From: a virus
Taxonomy: Duplodnaviria; Heunggongvirae; Uroviricota; Caudoviricetes
Direction: 5' to 3' (one strand)
DNA length: 39,782 bases
Virus record (IMG/VR): IMGVR_UViG_2687453623_000005
The notes under the pieces were generated by a model that had not been told where the DNA came from, ran no database searches, and was given only the letters and a program-made list of their open reading frames with translations. The translations under genes and the position numbers were made by a program. Positions 8,982-22,637 of the stretch are shown piece after piece; within the stretch, counting starts at the first letter, position 1, and each line of letters starts with the position of its first letter.

Positions 8982-9941
8982 ATGAAAATTTGTATCGACG
9001 ACGGCTCCACCAACATCAAGCTGGCATGGACTGAGAATGGCGAACGCCGCAACGCCATCAGCCCGAACAGCTTCAAGTCGGAATGGTCTGCGCCGTTCGG
9101 TGGCATGCAGCCCGCGAACTACATGCTTGATGGCGTGCGCTATGGTTTTGATCCGGTTAGCGATCGCTTTGTCCAGACGACCGACACGCAATACCAGTAC
9201 AGCGATGTGAATGTAATCGCCATTCATCACGCGCTGGTCAAATCAGGCATCACGCCACAGGAGGTGGATGTGGTTGTCACCCTGCCACTGAGCGAGTATT
9301 TCGACACAAACGCACAGCCGGACATGGCCAACATCAACCGCAAAAAAGCGAACGTTATGCGCCCGGTGGAATACCAGAACGGCGAAGCATTCACTATCCG
9401 TAACGTGCGGGTTATGCCTGAATCCATTCCGGCTGGCTTTAAAGCACTGGCTGACATGAGTCCGTTTGAATCCCTGCTGATTGTGGATTTAGGCGGAACC
9501 ACGCTGGATGTGGCAAAGGTTCAAGGGCAACTGGCAGGTATCAGCCAGGTGTTTTGCGATCCACACGTAGGCGTTTCCCTGATGGCCGATGCCGTACTGT
9601 CGGTGATGGCCACTAACGGTATGCGCACCAGTCACCACATCGCCAATACCATTATCGAACATCGCCATGATGAAGCCTGGCTGCGCCAGCACATCCACAA
9701 TGACGCGCATTACGCCAGCCTGATGGCGGTTATTCGTGAAAAGGAAGAAACACTGAAACAACGCGTGATCCGCGCGCTGGCGGTTTTTTCGGGTTACGGG
9801 CGGGTGATGGTTGTCGGTGGAGGGGCGGAGATTGTGGCACCCGCTATCCGCGAAGTCTGCGGAGTTAATGCGACTTTCATCGCGGACGGGGTGCCACAGT
9901 TTGCTCTGGTTAATGGGCTGTACGCAATGGACAAGGAGTAA
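8982..9941 (+). CDS. parM: ParM/StbA-like actin-type segregation ATPase, 319 aa
   Basis: N-terminus MKICIDDGSTNIKLAW and later IVDLGGTTLD and VVGGGAE motifs align with plasmid R1 ParM as I recall it. Confidence 0.8.
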   Translation: MKICIDDGSTNIKLAWTENGERRNAISPNSFKSEWSAPFGGMQPANYMLDGVRYGFDPVSDRFVQTTDTQYQYSDVNVIAIHHALVKSGITPQEVDVVVTLPLSEYFDTNAQPDMANINRKKANVMRPVEYQNGEAFTIRNVRVMPESIPAGFKALADMSPFESLLIVDLGGTTLDVAKVQGQLAGISQVFCDPHVGVSLMADAVLSVMATNGMRTSHHIANTIIEHRHDEAWLRQHIHNDAHYASLMAVIREKEETLKQRVIRALAVFSGYGRVMVVGGGAEIVAPAIREVCGVNATFIADGVPQFALVNGLYAMDKE

Positions 9942-9945
9942 ACCA

Positions 9946-10260
9946 ATGACGACACCAACCAGACGGATAAGTTTCTATCTGAAGCCCGCCGCCGTCAAGA
10001 GTGAACAGGAGGCGTGCAATTACCTCGATAGCCTGCCAGCCTCCGAACGCAGCCGCGCGCAACGCGCGGCCTTTCTGGCTGGGCTAGCGCTCATAAAGCG
10101 CAACCCAGCATTTGCCTACTGGATGGCCGAATGGCCAGAGGACAACCTCCCCTTCAATACCGTTAGCATCAAGGAAACATACCAGGATAATCAGCCTAGC
10201 GGAGTTGAATGCAATTTTTATAAAATAAAAAAGAATATTCAGACCTTATTCCCAGAATAA
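9946..10260 (+). CDS. parR: ParR-like centromere-binding adaptor, 104 aa
   Basis: N-terminal segment ISFYLKPAAV...LDSLPASERSRAQRAAFLAGLAL resembles R1 ParR. ATG at 9946 with AGGAG ribosome-binding site. Confidence 0.7.
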   Translation: MTTPTRRISFYLKPAAVKSEQEACNYLDSLPASERSRAQRAAFLAGLALIKRNPAFAYWMAEWPEDNLPFNTVSIKETYQDNQPSGVECNFYKIKKNIQTLFPE

Positions 10261-10343: not shown

Positions 10344-11186
10344 TCATGATGAAATTGCCGAAGTTTTTTTATCGTGCTGAAGTACCGCAAATGCCATTAA
10401 AACCTCAAGAGAATAGCGGCGATAATACTTAACAAAACCATAATAAAATACTCGGGATGCAGCAATACAAAACAAGAGAAGAAAACAAAAAGGTAACAGT
10501 CTGATATTTATATCTATTAAAAAGGATAGAAGGAGCAGGAACATAAGCAACCAGACTGAAGCGAGAAAAACAAATGTAATGTTTCTACAAAAACCATACA
10601 AAGCAACATAGTTTTGCATTTTCACCTGATGATTTTTAGAATGTTCATACACATAATGATAAGCAAGGCGAAAAAGATCGCCCCTCAAGCCCTTACGTCG
10701 ATATAGCGTAGATACAGAAAAAACATTTATATAACCATCTCGTATTTGCGGCCAAAAGACTTTAATAAGTATAGAATGCAGTGTGGTTTTATGATGTTCT
10801 GCTTTATCAAAAGCTGATACAGGAAATAAAAAAACTCCACGAATAAAATTAACTATACTGAACTTAGTATTATGTCGTTTTATTTTCAGGGAGCTTCTTT
10901 TAGAAAACAGATAAATTGAAGGATACCCAAGTTTACTGTTCATGTATTTTTCAATTAAACAGGATGATAGAATAGATATGAAGTGACCTGAAATATATGA
11001 TAGAACGATTAATACCACATATATAAATACACTTATTATTTCTTTATATTTCAGGATATGGTTAAGAATACCTTCTATATAAACAGGGTTAATTTCAATA
11101 GAAAACAAAAAAAGGATAAACAGGAATAACCCACCTGGAATTAGATAGCCCAAAAAGTCATAAAATGAAAACGGATTCTGTGTCAC
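10344..11186 (-). CDS. Polytopic membrane protein, 280 aa, unknown function, very AT-rich
   Basis: Multiple hydrophobic segments. GTG start preceded by GGGGGA. Downstream gene of a two-gene minus-strand operon. Confidence 0.6.
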   Translation of the reverse strand: MTQNPFSFYDFLGYLIPGGLFLFILFLFSIEINPVYIEGILNHILKYKEIISVFIYVVLIVLSYISGHFISILSSCLIEKYMNSKLGYPSIYLFSKRSSLKIKRHNTKFSIVNFIRGVFLFPVSAFDKAEHHKTTLHSILIKVFWPQIRDGYINVFSVSTLYRRKGLRGDLFRLAYHYVYEHSKNHQVKMQNYVALYGFCRNITFVFLASVWLLMFLLLLSFLIDINIRLLPFCFLLLFCIAASRVFYYGFVKYYRRYSLEVLMAFAVLQHDKKTSAISS

Positions 11187-11225
11187 ACTTCCCCCTGTGT
11201 TACTTGTAAATTAAAGGGTAAAACA

Positions 11226-11723
11226 TTATTTGTTTTTCCGTAAAGGATTAGCTTTCCATCTTCTTACTAACCATTCGAATTCTTGATATGTAGTATCCGA
11301 ATTAATGCTTTCTCTGATTGCTTTAATTAATGGCTCGGCAATATCATATGTCTCTACAACTGTTGTGTAAGATGTTCTTTTTATCATTTTTTCATCATAA
11401 ATACCTTCACGAATACTTACAGCAACTCGCTCGTAAAAATTTAAAATATATTGAAATTTTCGACGCTCGGCCATTTCTTCATCTGTTATTATGCAACCAT
11501 CACAAGGAAAAACATAAGAACGAAATGATTTGCCTGAACGATGCACTTGTTTCAGGGTATGCAATGACTCTATATATTGCATATCTTGCCGACTCTCAAA
11601 AAGAAAGTTGGCCGTTTGAGTTTTTTTTGCGGTACGCACATTGTAGATAATGGTTCCAATGGCAACCAAAACGCCAAGCAGAACAATAGCATTGCTGATG
11701 ATTTGTAGTGTTATTGGGTTCAT
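11226..11723 (-). CDS. Single-pass membrane protein, 165 aa: N-terminal TM helix plus soluble domain, unknown function
   Basis: N-terminus ITLQIISNAIVLLGVLVAIGTIIY is hydrophobic. Upstream gene of the operon. Confidence 0.6.
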   Translation of the reverse strand: MNPITLQIISNAIVLLGVLVAIGTIIYNVRTAKKTQTANFLFESRQDMQYIESLHTLKQVHRSGKSFRSYVFPCDGCIITDEEMAERRKFQYILNFYERVAVSIREGIYDEKMIKRTSYTTVVETYDIAEPLIKAIRESINSDTTYQEFEWLVRRWKANPLRKNK

Positions 11724-11743
11724 CCTATTTCATCCATAAAAAA

Positions 11744-11764
11744 GGCGGGGAGCAAATCCCCGCC
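11744..11764 (-). terminator. Hairpin GGCGGGGA-N5-TCCCCGCC with T-run on the minus strand; alternatively part of the cos region
   Basis: Seen directly. Partial resemblance to the G-rich P2/186 cohesive-end sequence. Confidence 0.35.
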
Positions 11765-11920
11765 TCATTAGAGGTCAACGTAGCTTAGAAACCATCAAAT
11801 TCATCATACATTTTTTTCATATCAACCCCCTCATAGAAATCATAACCACGTTTTGTGGTTTTTGTGACGTATAAACTACATCAAAGGCAAGCCACGGTCA
11901 AATATATAGGCATGCTTACC

Positions 11921-12019
11921 TGCACAAAAGTGCACAAATTTGCACAATTTTTTTGAACGACTTTTTACCCTTCCGGCCCGCATGGCGGCTGGATCCGTCA
12001 AGGATCCGTGCGTGCACAA
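11921..12019. repeat. Phased TGCACAA repeats (11921, 11931, 11941, 12013) plus a GGATCCGT direct repeat (11991, 12002)
   Basis: Seen directly; three copies at exact 10-bp spacing in a 700 bp non-coding stretch. Confidence 0.5.
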
Positions 12020-12446
12020 AAAAACGCGCTTTTTCTGCGCGCAGGTGACGGGGGAACAGCCCGCGTTTCAGGGGGTAAATAGCATTCCCTGAACGATGTC
12101 GCAGAGACACAACAGAATGGCCATATTTCTCACGCTGAGCATGAAAAAGGCGTGAGGGCTTTTGATTTGATGGGGTGAAAGGTAAGGCCGTCAAAATCGC
12201 ACTGAGGCAGCGAGAACATGCAGTCAACGCGGTGGAATTGCGTAAGAGTCTGACCGTCGATGGTGGCGATAAACTGGAAGGCGTCGTGAAATTATCTGAT
12301 TGATACAGGAGCTGGAGAGCCGGGGCATAAATTTTTTATGCCCCGGCGAAGCAGCAGACAAGCGAAGCGCGTCAGCGATACGGCACCTTGCCGACCATAC
12401 TTCATAAGTGCAAAATACGAGCAAAGAAATCAATGGAGGCTGTCTT

Positions 12447-12971
12447 ATGGTCATTAATTACAAGCAGTTAAGAGAAAAACGGGAGCAGGTAAAGGAGAGC
12501 TTTCGCCGCAATGAAGATCTGACCCCGCTTGTACGCCTTGCCCAGGGCATTGTTGATGCTTATGAAATCTCGCTGGAGCTGCCATCACAGACCTGGACAG
12601 ATAGCGACGGTAATCGCCAGCATTACGTTTCATGCGGACTGGAAGCAGCCGAAGGATTTCGCAGAATGCCTTTATCCCAGATCCCTGCCGCTACCCCCAA
12701 AGCACGGGGCAGCAATGATGAGCGAAAACTGACTTTTAGTATTGAAACGGTGGTTGACGACACACCTGGCGAAGTCGCGTTCGTGCACACTCCTGTTTCG
12801 ATCGCAATGTATAACGATGAAATACAGGTTCGCGTTAATAATAATATCGTGCCACTTAAAGAAGGTAATTCACCCTACACCACCGTTTGTGAAGCCATTC
12901 AATATTACGTTCTCTCTGAAATTGATAATCTCAAGCCTGACGGCACCCAGAAAATGGTTCAACTCTGGTAA
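12447..12971 (+). CDS. Hypothetical protein, 174 aa, between cos-like region and portal gene
   Basis: ATG at 12447 with GGAGG ribosome-binding site; followed by a bidirectional terminator. Confidence 0.55.
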   Translation: MVINYKQLREKREQVKESFRRNEDLTPLVRLAQGIVDAYEISLELPSQTWTDSDGNRQHYVSCGLEAAEGFRRMPLSQIPAATPKARGSNDERKLTFSIETVVDDTPGEVAFVHTPVSIAMYNDEIQVRVNNNIVPLKEGNSPYTTVCEAIQYYVLSEIDNLKPDGTQKMVQLW

Positions 12972-13002
12972 AAAGGACAGCCCCATCACGGGGCTGTTTT
13001 TT
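12971..13002. terminator. Bidirectional intrinsic terminator between the 174-aa gene and Q
   Basis: Hairpin CAGCCCC-N5-GGGGCTG flanked by an A-run and a T-run. Confidence 0.6.
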
Positions 13003-14032
13003 CATCAAGAAGAGCATAAGAGTTAAAACGGATCACCTCTTCGCCAAGCCAGTCATTGATGTGCTTCATAGCCTCCATAACGGGCATCAGCTCGTTAATT
13101 GCGTAAACCCGCGCTGCCTTCTCCACATCGCCAAACGCACTTTTTTCGCCCGGCATCGCCCCCATCAGTTGCGGCGGAACGCGGTGCGCAGCCAGCACAT
13201 CATCACGGGATGCCGCCTTAACATTCATGAATTCATCTTTTGCGGTGATCTGCTGGAACGGCAAAATTTGCACCCCCTCTTTGCCCCCGTTGGGCGCATG
13301 AATGAGCACGTTTTTAAACGCACCACCACCACGTGCCCCCTGTAGCGTTTCTTTCAGGGAGTCCATGCTTTCGCGGTTTACCTGCGCTGCACCGATGTAG
13401 ATGATGCACCCGGCGTGGGATCCGTTGTCGTAGTACAGTTTTCTGAACATGTCCGCCGAATGAGAAAGGCTGGCCGAGAGTAATGCGCCAAGATATTCCG
13501 GCATGCCGTAGATTTCCTGGTTAATATCCGGATTCATCAGGTGGCACACTTTGCCAGGACGAAACTGAAACGCGTCCTTGCCATCCTGCACATACCACCA
13601 TGATTCAAGATCGCTTCCGCGTCGCATGTATTTCGCCAGGGCGTGCCGTAATTTAAGCGGTTCGCCGAGCATATTGCTTCGAAGCTCAAGGAATGCGTTA
13701 CCGAACACAAACCAGTCCAGCGCCAGCGCCGAGAAATCCTGCCGGGAAAGCAGCGGGTGCGGGATGTAGCAACCGAGTAATACATTGCGCTTAAAGTAAA
13801 GCGCAGACTGATGCCAGGACGTTTGCCGGGCTGCTCTTGCCAGACCGTACCAGTCCACCGGGGTTTCATACCACCGCCCGTTATCAGCACAGTACATATT
13901 GTCCAGCAGGTCATGCCCGGTCAGGCGATAAGGACCATCAAATGTGAATGCACTGAGCGATGATTCTTTCCTGAGCGCATCAGCGAGATCAATGCGTGAA
14001 CTCATGCGCACTTTTTTATTTTTTCTGCTCAT
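12986..14032 (-). CDS. Q: Portal protein, P2 gpQ-like, 348 aa
   Basis: Size and position next to terminase P, divergent from the O-N-M-L operon. Confidence 0.9.
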   Translation of the reverse strand: MSRKNKKVRMSSRIDLADALRKESSLSAFTFDGPYRLTGHDLLDNMYCADNGRWYETPVDWYGLARAARQTSWHQSALYFKRNVLLGCYIPHPLLSRQDFSALALDWFVFGNAFLELRSNMLGEPLKLRHALAKYMRRGSDLESWWYVQDGKDAFQFRPGKVCHLMNPDINQEIYGMPEYLGALLSASLSHSADMFRKLYYDNGSHAGCIIYIGAAQVNRESMDSLKETLQGARGGGAFKNVLIHAPNGGKEGVQILPFQQITAKDEFMNVKAASRDDVLAAHRVPPQLMGAMPGEKSAFGDVEKAARVYAINELMPVMEAMKHINDWLGEEVIRFNSYALLDEKTAP

Positions 14033-20598: not shown

Positions 20599-20740
20599 CC
20601 CACCCACATGGGGAAACCTCGGAATATGGGGCGACCGCCTTCTGGATGCACTGGAAACCTGTAACGCGGATAAACGGGCCATTGCTGAACTGGATAAGAG
20701 AATAGCCGAACTGACACACCAGACGGGAGTAACACAATGA
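20459..20740 (+). CDS. Outer-membrane lipoprotein spanin (LysC/Rz1-like), embedded in and extending past the i-spanin gene
   Basis: Lipobox LLTGC after a signal peptide; proline-rich segment PVTPPPFPDPP. Confidence 0.65.
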   Translation: MNAPTLCLTLVLLTGCAGTQNAPGPAPSVRLIPQTLTMPVTPPPFPDPPTWGNLGIWGDRLLDALETCNADKRAIAELDKRIAELTHQTGVTQ

Positions 20741-22614
20741 CCAGTAAGAACTTTGCACTGATTACAGCCATGACACAGGCTGAACTGACTCAAAAGGTGA
20801 ATGAACATCTTGCGAAAGGGTGGCATCTTCAGGGGGAGACGCGGGTTGCCTACGAACCCGGCACCCCGTGGTATCTAATGCAGGCAATGGTGGCCGATGG
20901 CACTACAGACATCTCACCTGATTCCCCCCAGCACGGCAGCGTGCCGGAGTGGTATTACGTGGTGGTACTTGCTGGTCAATCCAATGCCATGTCATATGGT
21001 GAGGGAATGCCGCTGCCGGATTCTTACGATGCGCCCCACCCACGCATTAAGCAACTGGCCCGTCGCAACACAGTGACTCCCGGTGGTAAAGCATGCGCAT
21101 TTAACGACATCATTCCGGCAGACCACTGCCTGCATGATGTTCAGGATATGAGCGCACTGAATCACCCGAATGCAGACCTGAGCAAAGGGCAGTATGGCTG
21201 TGTCGGACAGGGCTTGCATATTGCCAAACGCCTGTTGCCTTACATTCCACAGAATGCCGGGATTTTACTGGTTCCATGCTGTCGTGGTGGTTCGGCATTC
21301 ACCCAGGGCGCGGAGGGGACATTCAGCGAGTCCACAGGAGCCAGTCAGGATTCGGCTCGCTGGGGTGTGGGTAAACCTTTATATCAGGACCTGATTTTGC
21401 GCACGAAGGCCGCATTGCAGAAAAACCCAAAAAACATGCTGCTGGCCGTATGCTGGATGCAGGGCGAATTTGACATGAGCGCCGCTACGTACTCACAGCA
21501 ACCTCCGCTGTTTACGGCCATGCTGAAACAGTTTCGTGCGGACATTACCGAGTTTAACACGCAGTGTCATGGAGGCAGAGCGGCAAGTGTGCCATGGATT
21601 TGTGGTGACACGACGTATTACTGGAAAAACACCTACGGCACGCAGTACGACACCATTTACGGGGCGTACAAAAACAGGGAGAGCGACAACGTTTTCTTTG
21701 TGCCGTTCCTGACCGATGGTAGTGGCAACAATACCTCCACCAACGCACCAACGGAAGATCCGGATGCTGCAAGTGAGGGATATTACGGTTCGGCATCCCG
21801 AACGAACAAAAACTGGGTATCATCAAATCGCCAGACGCATTTCAGCTCATGGGCGCGTCGTGGCATTATTCCCGATCGTATGGCAACCGCTATTCTGAAC
21901 GTAGCCGGTCGCACCTTAGCCTTCATCAGTGGTAAGGCACCGGAAATCAAACCCTCGCCCGGCGGCGACACGCCATCGGGGCCGTCTGAAGATGCATCCG
22001 TACGCACAATCTCCCTGTTGCCGACAGCCGGAGATGCTGCTGCGCAGGGCTGGAGCATTAAGAATGGCGGAATTCAGTTGTCAGAGGGTGTATTTAAGAT
22101 CACCAAGCAGAGCAATAAAGCCTGGTCCCTGACGCGCCCGGTGGATGACGCAGTCTCCCTGCTGACACGGGGTGGCAGACTGAGCTGTAAGTTTCGACTG
22201 TCAGGCGCACTGACCAACAATCAGTTCGGTCTGGGAATTTATCTGTATACCGATGTAGCGTTACCTGACGTCGTGGCGATGACCGGGACTGGTAACCCGT
22301 TCCTGATGTCGTTCTTCACCCAGACCACAGACGGCAAACTGAATCTGATGCATCACAAGAAAGCAGGAAACACAAAGTTGGGCGAGTTCGGGAATTACAG
22401 TAACGACTGGCAGACGCTGGAGCTGGTGTTCACCGCCGGCAGTGCCACGGTTACTCCGAAACTGAATGGAGTGGCTGGCCCGGCATTCCAGGTCATAAAA
22501 GACAGTCTGACACTGGGGCTGAATGCGCTGACGTTAACTGATATCACTAAAAATGCCGCGTACGGCGTCGATATCGGCAGCCTGGTGCTGGAAATCAATA
22601 ATCCCGCAGCATAA
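20737..22614 (+). CDS. DUF1737 + SASA-domain sialate O-acetylesterase (NanS-p-like moron), 625 aa
   Basis: VVVLAGQSNAMSYGEG matches the GQSNM esterase motif. N-terminal 50 aa resemble DUF1737. Confidence 0.75.
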   Translation: MTSKNFALITAMTQAELTQKVNEHLAKGWHLQGETRVAYEPGTPWYLMQAMVADGTTDISPDSPQHGSVPEWYYVVVLAGQSNAMSYGEGMPLPDSYDAPHPRIKQLARRNTVTPGGKACAFNDIIPADHCLHDVQDMSALNHPNADLSKGQYGCVGQGLHIAKRLLPYIPQNAGILLVPCCRGGSAFTQGAEGTFSESTGASQDSARWGVGKPLYQDLILRTKAALQKNPKNMLLAVCWMQGEFDMSAATYSQQPPLFTAMLKQFRADITEFNTQCHGGRAASVPWICGDTTYYWKNTYGTQYDTIYGAYKNRESDNVFFVPFLTDGSGNNTSTNAPTEDPDAASEGYYGSASRTNKNWVSSNRQTHFSSWARRGIIPDRMATAILNVAGRTLAFISGKAPEIKPSPGGDTPSGPSEDASVRTISLLPTAGDAAAQGWSIKNGGIQLSEGVFKITKQSNKAWSLTRPVDDAVSLLTRGGRLSCKFRLSGALTNNQFGLGIYLYTDVALPDVVAMTGTGNPFLMSFFTQTTDGKLNLMHHKKAGNTKLGEFGNYSNDWQTLELVFTAGSATVTPKLNGVAGPAFQVIKDSLTLGLNALTLTDITKNAAYGVDIGSLVLEINNPAA

Positions 22615-22637
22615 GGAAGAGCAGGAGAGCAAAACAG

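Follow-up and report, generated by a model that had tools for sequence, protein, structure and literature searches.

A conserved, dispensable gene beside the portal gene of P2-family prophages: a candidate moron with a possible role in phage conflict

The gene at positions 12447-12971 of virus record IMGVR_UViG_2687453623_000005, a sequence of 39,782 nucleotides from the class Caudoviricetes (hereafter, the window), encodes a protein of 174 residues and has the portal gene of a P2-family phage on one side and a probable cos region on the other. It is a real and well-conserved gene, yet a dispensable one. Already catalogued as hypothetical, it is an uncharacterised phage moron or hotspot accessory gene. 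A moron, as Hendrix and colleagues used the term, is a promoter-gene-terminator unit inserted between conserved phage genes. The explanation that we tentatively prefer, by analogy and at somewhat less than even confidence, is that the gene is an insulated moron that, much as P2 Tin or Fun do, would shield the lysogen from other phages or mobile elements. If it is indeed an immunity or counter-immunity factor, about 7% of complete Escherichia coli genomes, those of the pandemic sequence type 131 (ST131) included, carry a phage-conflict gene that has gone unrecognised.

The open reading frame starts with ATG and comprises 174 codons plus a TAA stop. The hidden Markov model of the protein family phrog_5091 matches residues 1-168 along its whole length (profile positions 1-164 of 164; E 1.4e-67, 227.5 bits). 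Pairwise ratios of nonsynonymous to synonymous substitution rates (dN/dS) against the E. coli variants are 0.08-0.14, and the gene is under purifying selection. Together with a confident AlphaFold2 model (described below), these results show that the reading frame did not arise by chance. The start codon is fixed by the N-terminal pattern M-[VT]-I-[NT]-Y, which is conserved across the family and matches the ATG at 12447, so that a longer in-frame reading frame beginning with GTG at 12408 is not needed. The good ribosome-binding site noticed in an earlier, sequence-only reading of this DNA is present 7 nt before that ATG (Table 1).

BLAST comparison with phage P88 shows that the gene belongs to a unit that is either present or absent as a whole. 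P88 aligns with window positions 11921-12375 (P88 record L001, 3001-3455) and again from 13011 onward, at 93-96% identity, and 635 bp of the window stand in place of 21 bp of P88 (3456-3476). The left breakpoint falls directly after GCGCGTCAG, 28 bp past a perfect palindrome with 13-bp arms, and the same breakpoint is used by another E. coli allele (L017) that is only 56% identical in protein. On the right, the break falls eight codons short of the end of the portal gene, Q. Records of P88-like phages (Peduoviridae, genus Xuanwuvirus) match the region with 100% identity, and so does a prophage next to dmsA in the ST131 strain JJ1887, where the gene order is gpA, ParM, a partition/stability protein, a membrane protein, a DUF4760 protein, WP_000236495 (the protein studied here) and portal. 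Two of the phage records, vB_EcoM-569R5 and -705R2, stem from a study of phages located in the genomes of clinical isolates.

The cassette is common and keeps to one place. Of 5426 complete E. coli genomes, 396 have it at 90% identity or better, in every case on the chromosome and next to a portal gene; lineages that commonly carry it include ST131 and O111, and the exact protein is encoded on at least 1000 contigs. Empty junctions were counted with a 141-bp probe across the P88 junction. Among the 1179 genomes that carry the left flank, the junction is uninterrupted in 780, holds this allele in 396 and holds something else in about three. The sub-site between cos and the portal gene is almost biallelic, with about one third of P88-type junctions occupied, and we did not find many unrelated alternative cassettes at this exact position: the single other allele, L017, encodes a homolog from the same family. 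Since P88 and roughly two thirds of P88-type junctions lack it, the gene is dispensable. The suggestion that it is additional cargo of the neighbouring hotspot therefore holds in part. The gene is dispensable and lies within the gpA-gpQ interval, but the junction counts show that it is not freely shuffled.

Its evolutionary history points the same way. P2-like prophages of E. coli, Salmonella and Morganella contain homologs, 23-96% identical, at the same place and convergent with Q. Where the portal proteins are 99-100% identical, the proteins studied here are 87-96% identical, and as portal identity falls to 76%, 69% and 47%, that of the gene product falls to 61%, 56% and 23%, respectively. 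Divergence that tracks the portal across Escherichia, Salmonella and Morganella makes the gene look like an old resident that is often lost, rather than freshly shuffled cargo. It is combined with at least four different sets of cargo on the A side: the membrane and DUF4760 proteins found in the window, a longer DUF4760 gene alone, small genes of the P88 type, or almost nothing. The Q side of cos can evidently hold a stable accessory gene, unlike the rapidly swapped cargo of the A side. That side is empty in P2, as the sequence-only reading had stated: in NC_001895, cosL occupies 1-19, the terminator tQ 160-181 and Q 187-1221.

Within the cassette, which stands at the left end of the phage chromosome, the gene would be a moron as Hendrix defined it, non-essential and a transcription unit in itself. 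Its parts would be a weak, putative sigma-70 promoter of constitutive type, a strong ribosome-binding site, the single reading frame and a bidirectional terminator that also ends the late P-Q operon. The promoter-like site is conserved in the E. coli variants, and the Salmonella copy (61% identical) has TTGTCT-17-CAAAAT upstream of the gene although the surrounding DNA has diverged. A long upstream leader had been proposed for this gene. We found no support for it; the conserved sigma-70-like site would leave a leader of about 25 nt. Reading the sequence upstream of the gene, we saw no element of the TGT-N12-ACA (Ogr-type) form found in P2 late promoters. Transcription is probably independent of the Ogr-controlled late genes and would hence proceed from the repressed prophage as well, and the insulated promoter-gene-terminator build would favour expression in that state.

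The terminator is real, and here the sequence-only reading, which had given the gene a bidirectional terminator of its own, was borne out. The hairpin starts right after the stop codon and has a predicted folding energy of -22.5 kcal/mol (z -4.9 relative to shuffled sequences). Because a run of A flanks it on the 5' side and a run of T on the 3' side, it can act in both directions. Loci from Salmonella, from Morganella and from E. coli with the 56% allele have hairpins in the same place that are not homologous to this one. The portal stop codon (12986-12988) lies within the terminator loop and the last five portal codons (EKTAP) within its right arm, so gain or loss of the cassette changes the C-terminal five residues of the portal protein, which read TQPTS in P88. 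The gene's content of guanine plus cytosine (GC), 47.4%, differs modestly from that of the portal (52.9%) and terminase (54.1%) genes; that of the neighbouring DUF4760 and membrane-protein cargo is 32-35%. An Rfam scan of 11700-13100 returned a single chance match below threshold (SorX: 19 bits, gathering score 46.6).

The protein belongs to a family, phrog_5091, to which no function has been assigned and for which there is neither a Pfam domain nor an NCBIfam model nor a solved structure. As had been noted from the sequence, it has no recognisable motif: Pfam, NCBIfam and PADLOC gave no match for it and none of significance for its 63 relatives. In the literature and supplements that were searched for WP_000236495, FIG00643476 and PhiR44, no functional data turned up. 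The protein is mildly acidic (net charge -6) and has neither a signal peptide nor a membrane segment, and searches for DNA-binding motifs and for toxin or virulence families gave no match. With 63 diverse relatives as the alignment, AlphaFold2 predicted an alpha+beta protein (pLDDT 90.6, pTM 0.81) with two N-terminal helices (residues 5-22 and 26-42) followed by an antiparallel sheet (49-135), on which a C-terminal helix (145-159) packs. Conservation falls mainly on aromatic and aliphatic residues of the core (Y39, S42, L43, L45, W50, Y60, F97, T101), and also on a beta-hairpin tip of the form TV-x-DD-x-P-x-GG and on V-C-x-x-I-K in the last helix. The pattern shows no evident catalytic constellation.

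The weak neighbours of the protein are all non-enzymatic scaffolds. Among them are the FP domains through which PI31 and Fbxo7 dimerise, actin-capping-protein subunits and the C-terminal domain of Mediator Med17. Others were the TnsE C-terminal domain, P1 DarA, Imm52, a type III secretion chaperone and AcrIIA11. These neighbours are compatible with a binding or dimerising protein and are no evidence of homology. A single-sequence search of the PDB also matched designed helical-repeat proteins (E 2.7e-7, residues 125-168). We rejected those matches as an artefact because they vanish when the 63-sequence profile is used and clash with the sheet plus helix predicted for that part of the chain. 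The product is soluble and has neither a catalytic motif nor a conserved partner gene; stoichiometric binding of another protein is its most likely mode of action. The gene probably encodes a small binding protein that aids the lysogen or the phage, not a part of the virion or of the packaging machinery.

The gene's location suggests what such a protein might do. The interval from gpA to gpQ is a published hotspot of P2-like phages that is home to old, tin and many validated defence systems (PMC9122126, PMC9519451, PMC13586616), and the JJ1887 annotation places the gene within it, between replication gene A and portal gene Q. A supplementary table of Rousset et al. lists exactly this arrangement, WP_000236495 included (PMC9122126). 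Those authors cloned eight further P2-hotspot systems plus old-tin; the three additional protective systems of that study do not include this arrangement, and its presence among the cloned set is not established (PMC9122126). The gene shares with P2 old, tin and fun(Z) a place near cos in the gpA-gpQ interval, and like them it is dispensable, stands singly and carries transcription signals of its own. Unlike them, it stands on the Q side of the probable cos, at a site that is almost biallelic rather than hypervariable, and it has no sequence relation to Tin (profile comparison, probability 0.4%). The resemblance to morons is similarly incomplete. The gene shares with morons its presence or absence between otherwise almost identical flanks, its own terminator and the insertion of relatives at several module junctions (the three checked each have their own terminator); it also has a promoter-like site, and its GC content is slightly lower. 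In contrast to a recent insertion, it co-diverges with the adjacent portal across genera, and the activity of its promoter is putative.

Taking the family as a whole, we consider it nearly an even call that phrog_5091 is a new single-protein immunity or counter-immunity factor. On this proposal it would have an alpha+beta fold unlike any solved structure, would long have been retained where cos meets the portal gene in P2-family phages of Enterobacterales, would have been copied as a moron into other temperate phages, and would bind a conserved phage or host protein. The gene is common, sits in the best-documented defence hotspot of P2-like prophages, and has a confidently predicted fold with no solved relative; with cassette boundaries, putative promoter and terminator defined, it is a sensible candidate for a plating screen. 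On present evidence, it is one of many hypothetical hotspot genes, with nothing mechanistically surprising about it yet.

Several observations weigh against a protective role in the lysogen. PADLOC detected no homology to known or candidate defence systems, either in the protein or, at significance, in its 63 relatives, and the protein is absent from the searchable supplements of DefensePredictor. The putative promoter matches consensus at only 8 of 12 positions, under the 9-of-12 threshold of our scan, and is absent from the 56% allele L017. The near-biallelic sub-site and the co-divergence with the portal are unlike the rapidly swapped defence cargo of the A side and fit equally well a function that benefits the phage. 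Finally, a constitutive promoter at the end of the genome would also suit an early counter-defence protein.

That last point leads to the alternative that fares best, although we regard it as unlikely: that the protein is made from its own promoter when phage DNA enters the cell or the prophage is induced, and binds and blocks an immune protein of the host or of a resident prophage, aiding establishment or replication. Co-inheritance with the head module would suit such a role as well as the promoter's position does. Among characterised anti-defence proteins (DNA mimics of the Ocr/ArdA type, Acr and Dar proteins), we found no homolog by sequence or fold, and the strong negative charge of the mimics is not matched here.

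We think it more doubtful still that the gene is one of lysogenic conversion, altering host physiology by modulating, for example, a host regulator, a stress response or a surface structure. The moron architecture would fit, as would the gene's frequency in the successful pathogenic lineages ST131 and O111, but enrichment in ST131 may merely reflect clonal sampling. In a prophage of E. coli 2013C-4081 (L012, 1145-3522), gpA is truncated by an IS3-family transposase while the 174-residue gene and the head genes are intact. The survival of a gene under purifying selection in a damaged prophage would favour a benefit to the host; however, the morphogenetic genes are also intact there, so the decay is recent and uninformative. 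The lack of a signal peptide, membrane segment, DNA-binding motif and toxin or virulence match also argues against host-directed conversion.

A position beside cos, portal or terminase genes could instead reflect function, as expected of a packaging or virion accessory protein such as an internal head protein or a factor that works with cos or with the portal. This is very improbable, above all because phages with 99%-identical portals lack the gene: it is missing from P88, from P2 and from about two thirds of P88-type prophages. Pfam, PHROG function assignments, NCBIfam, the PDB and BFVD returned no packaging or structural match, a finding that leaves standing the earlier view of the gene as accessory cargo. 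The gene is also convergent to the late operon and insulated from it, no Ogr-type late-promoter element was seen, and other homologs lie after gpA, before lysis genes or in tail modules. Least probable of all is that a cos-proximal helper gene interferes with P4-like satellites that use the helper's packaging machinery, for which only position speaks (the cos-proximal region is functionally common to P2-like helpers and P4-like satellites; PMC9122126) and against which stands the occurrence of homologs in non-P2 phages.

Table 1. Features of the accessory cassette and its flanks in the 39,782-nucleotide window.
Feature	Position	Strand	Remarks
Non-coding conserved block, 455 bp	11921..12375		about 93% identity with P88 and other Xuanwuvirus phages; left flank of the cassette
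Perfect 13-bp inverted repeat, GCCGGGGCATAAA ttt TTTATGCCCCGGC	12319..12347		no adjacent T-run
Presence/absence cassette, 635 bp	12376..13010	+	promoter-like site, ribosome-binding site, gene, terminator and last codons of portal gene Q
Putative sigma-70 promoter	12388..12416	+	TTGCCG (12388-12393), 17 nt, CAAAAT (12411-12416); 8/12 consensus positions
Shine-Dalgarno sequence GGAGG	12435..12439	+	7 nt 5' of the ATG; kept in variants
Coding sequence of the 174-residue protein	12447..12971	+	19.8 kDa, isoelectric point 5.0, soluble; phrog_5091; identical to RefSeq WP_000236495 (hypothetical protein)
Bidirectional intrinsic terminator	12972..13002		arms 12972-12984 and 12990-13002; serves the gene (+) and the convergent late P-Q operon (-)
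Portal gene Q	12986..14032	-	annotated as phage portal protein in JJ1887; convergent with the 174-residue gene

The conserved block to the left of the cassette, which all P88-like phages share, probably contains cos. Further P88-like records match it from about base 222 of the query onward. The sequence-only reading had called this a cos-like region; the site of cos here is only inferred. The 19-mer of P2 cos is absent from the window at up to three mismatches, a BLAST search of the window with the P2 cos junction found nothing significant, and the one positional clue comes from the linear Xuanwuvirus record LR595891, which starts and ends within the block, in a GC-rich stretch at window 11965/11966. 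That point may be the cos cleavage site of P88-like phages, which lack the P2 19-mer; a cut there fits a cos about 480 bp upstream of the gene but is no proof of it. The palindrome within the block is conserved in all P88-like phages, P88 itself and every variant that carries the cassette included. It lies 24 nt beyond the portal stop codon in P88 and upstream of the gene in the window, and it may bind a protein, act as a non-canonical terminator or serve as a landmark for recombination.

Beyond the P2-like junction, an exhaustive profile search collected 89 proteins at E 1e-3 or better, most of them full-length (155-185 residues) and 22-32% identical to the query; phrog_5091 is matched by all 63 of the aligned relatives. 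Named sources are Escherichia, Salmonella, Trabulsiella, Lelliottia, Morganella, Yersinia and Xenorhabdus. Two long matches, P0049 (a cadherin/RTX adhesin) and P0094 (Ig-like repeats), were set aside as spurious since they share only the beta-hairpin motif. No domain fusions were found among the family matches, and P0013, P0054 and P0100 have no extra domains. A profile scan of the genome collection with one family alignment recovered three loci.

The contexts of these relatives are varied, and no neighbouring gene is conserved across them. In a P2-like prophage of Trabulsiella with genes of the Cox and 186 Fil families, the homolog follows gpA and adjoins HicB and Phd/Fic genes. In HK97-like prophages of Lelliottia, it lies between a methyltransferase gene and the HNH and small-terminase genes. 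Elsewhere it lies between antiterminator Q and holin genes (L022), between a tail chaperone and a tape-measure gene (L023 and, likewise, L027 from Xenorhabdus), between a baseplate hub gene and a gpW-like wedge gene (L021), or after an anti-repressor gene (L024). At the three distant loci checked for it (L021, L022 and L023), each homolog has an intrinsic terminator of its own behind it, even where it stands amid a tail operon, which is the classic signature of a moron.

Other accessory genes of the window deserve mention. Directly after gpA, positions 8982-10260 (+) encode a ParM/StbA actin-like ATPase and a Plasmid_stab_B protein, a plasmid-type partition system of the sort carried by about a quarter of P2-like phages (Rousset et al., PMC9122126). 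On the A side of the conserved block, positions 10344-11723 (-) contain a two-gene unit of 32-35% GC with its own terminator at 11742-11766. One gene encodes a protein of 280 residues (phrog_12528) that, judging by its hydrophobic sequence, may span the membrane several times and has a weak PADLOC match to Csx27 (E 1.1e-5). The other encodes a DUF4760 protein of 165 residues (Pfam E 1.8e-34); other prophages carry a longer DUF4760 gene alone. The unit looks like a candidate defence cassette. At about 20738-22615 of the window (converted from the JJ1887 annotation, L008 23363-25240), a gene for a DUF6645 protein of 625 residues separates the lysis genes (lysC) from the tail completion genes. 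To our knowledge, P2 has no gene at that position, and the DUF6645 gene may be another accessory insertion.

One of the Lelliottia prophages has an insertion of a different kind. In L004 (10385-15784), an integrase gene, two genes for AlpA-type regulators and a D5-type primase gene directly follow the small terminase gene, at the position where the sister prophage L003 has its large terminase and portal genes. This segment looks like a satellite-like element integrated into the packaging module of the prophage.
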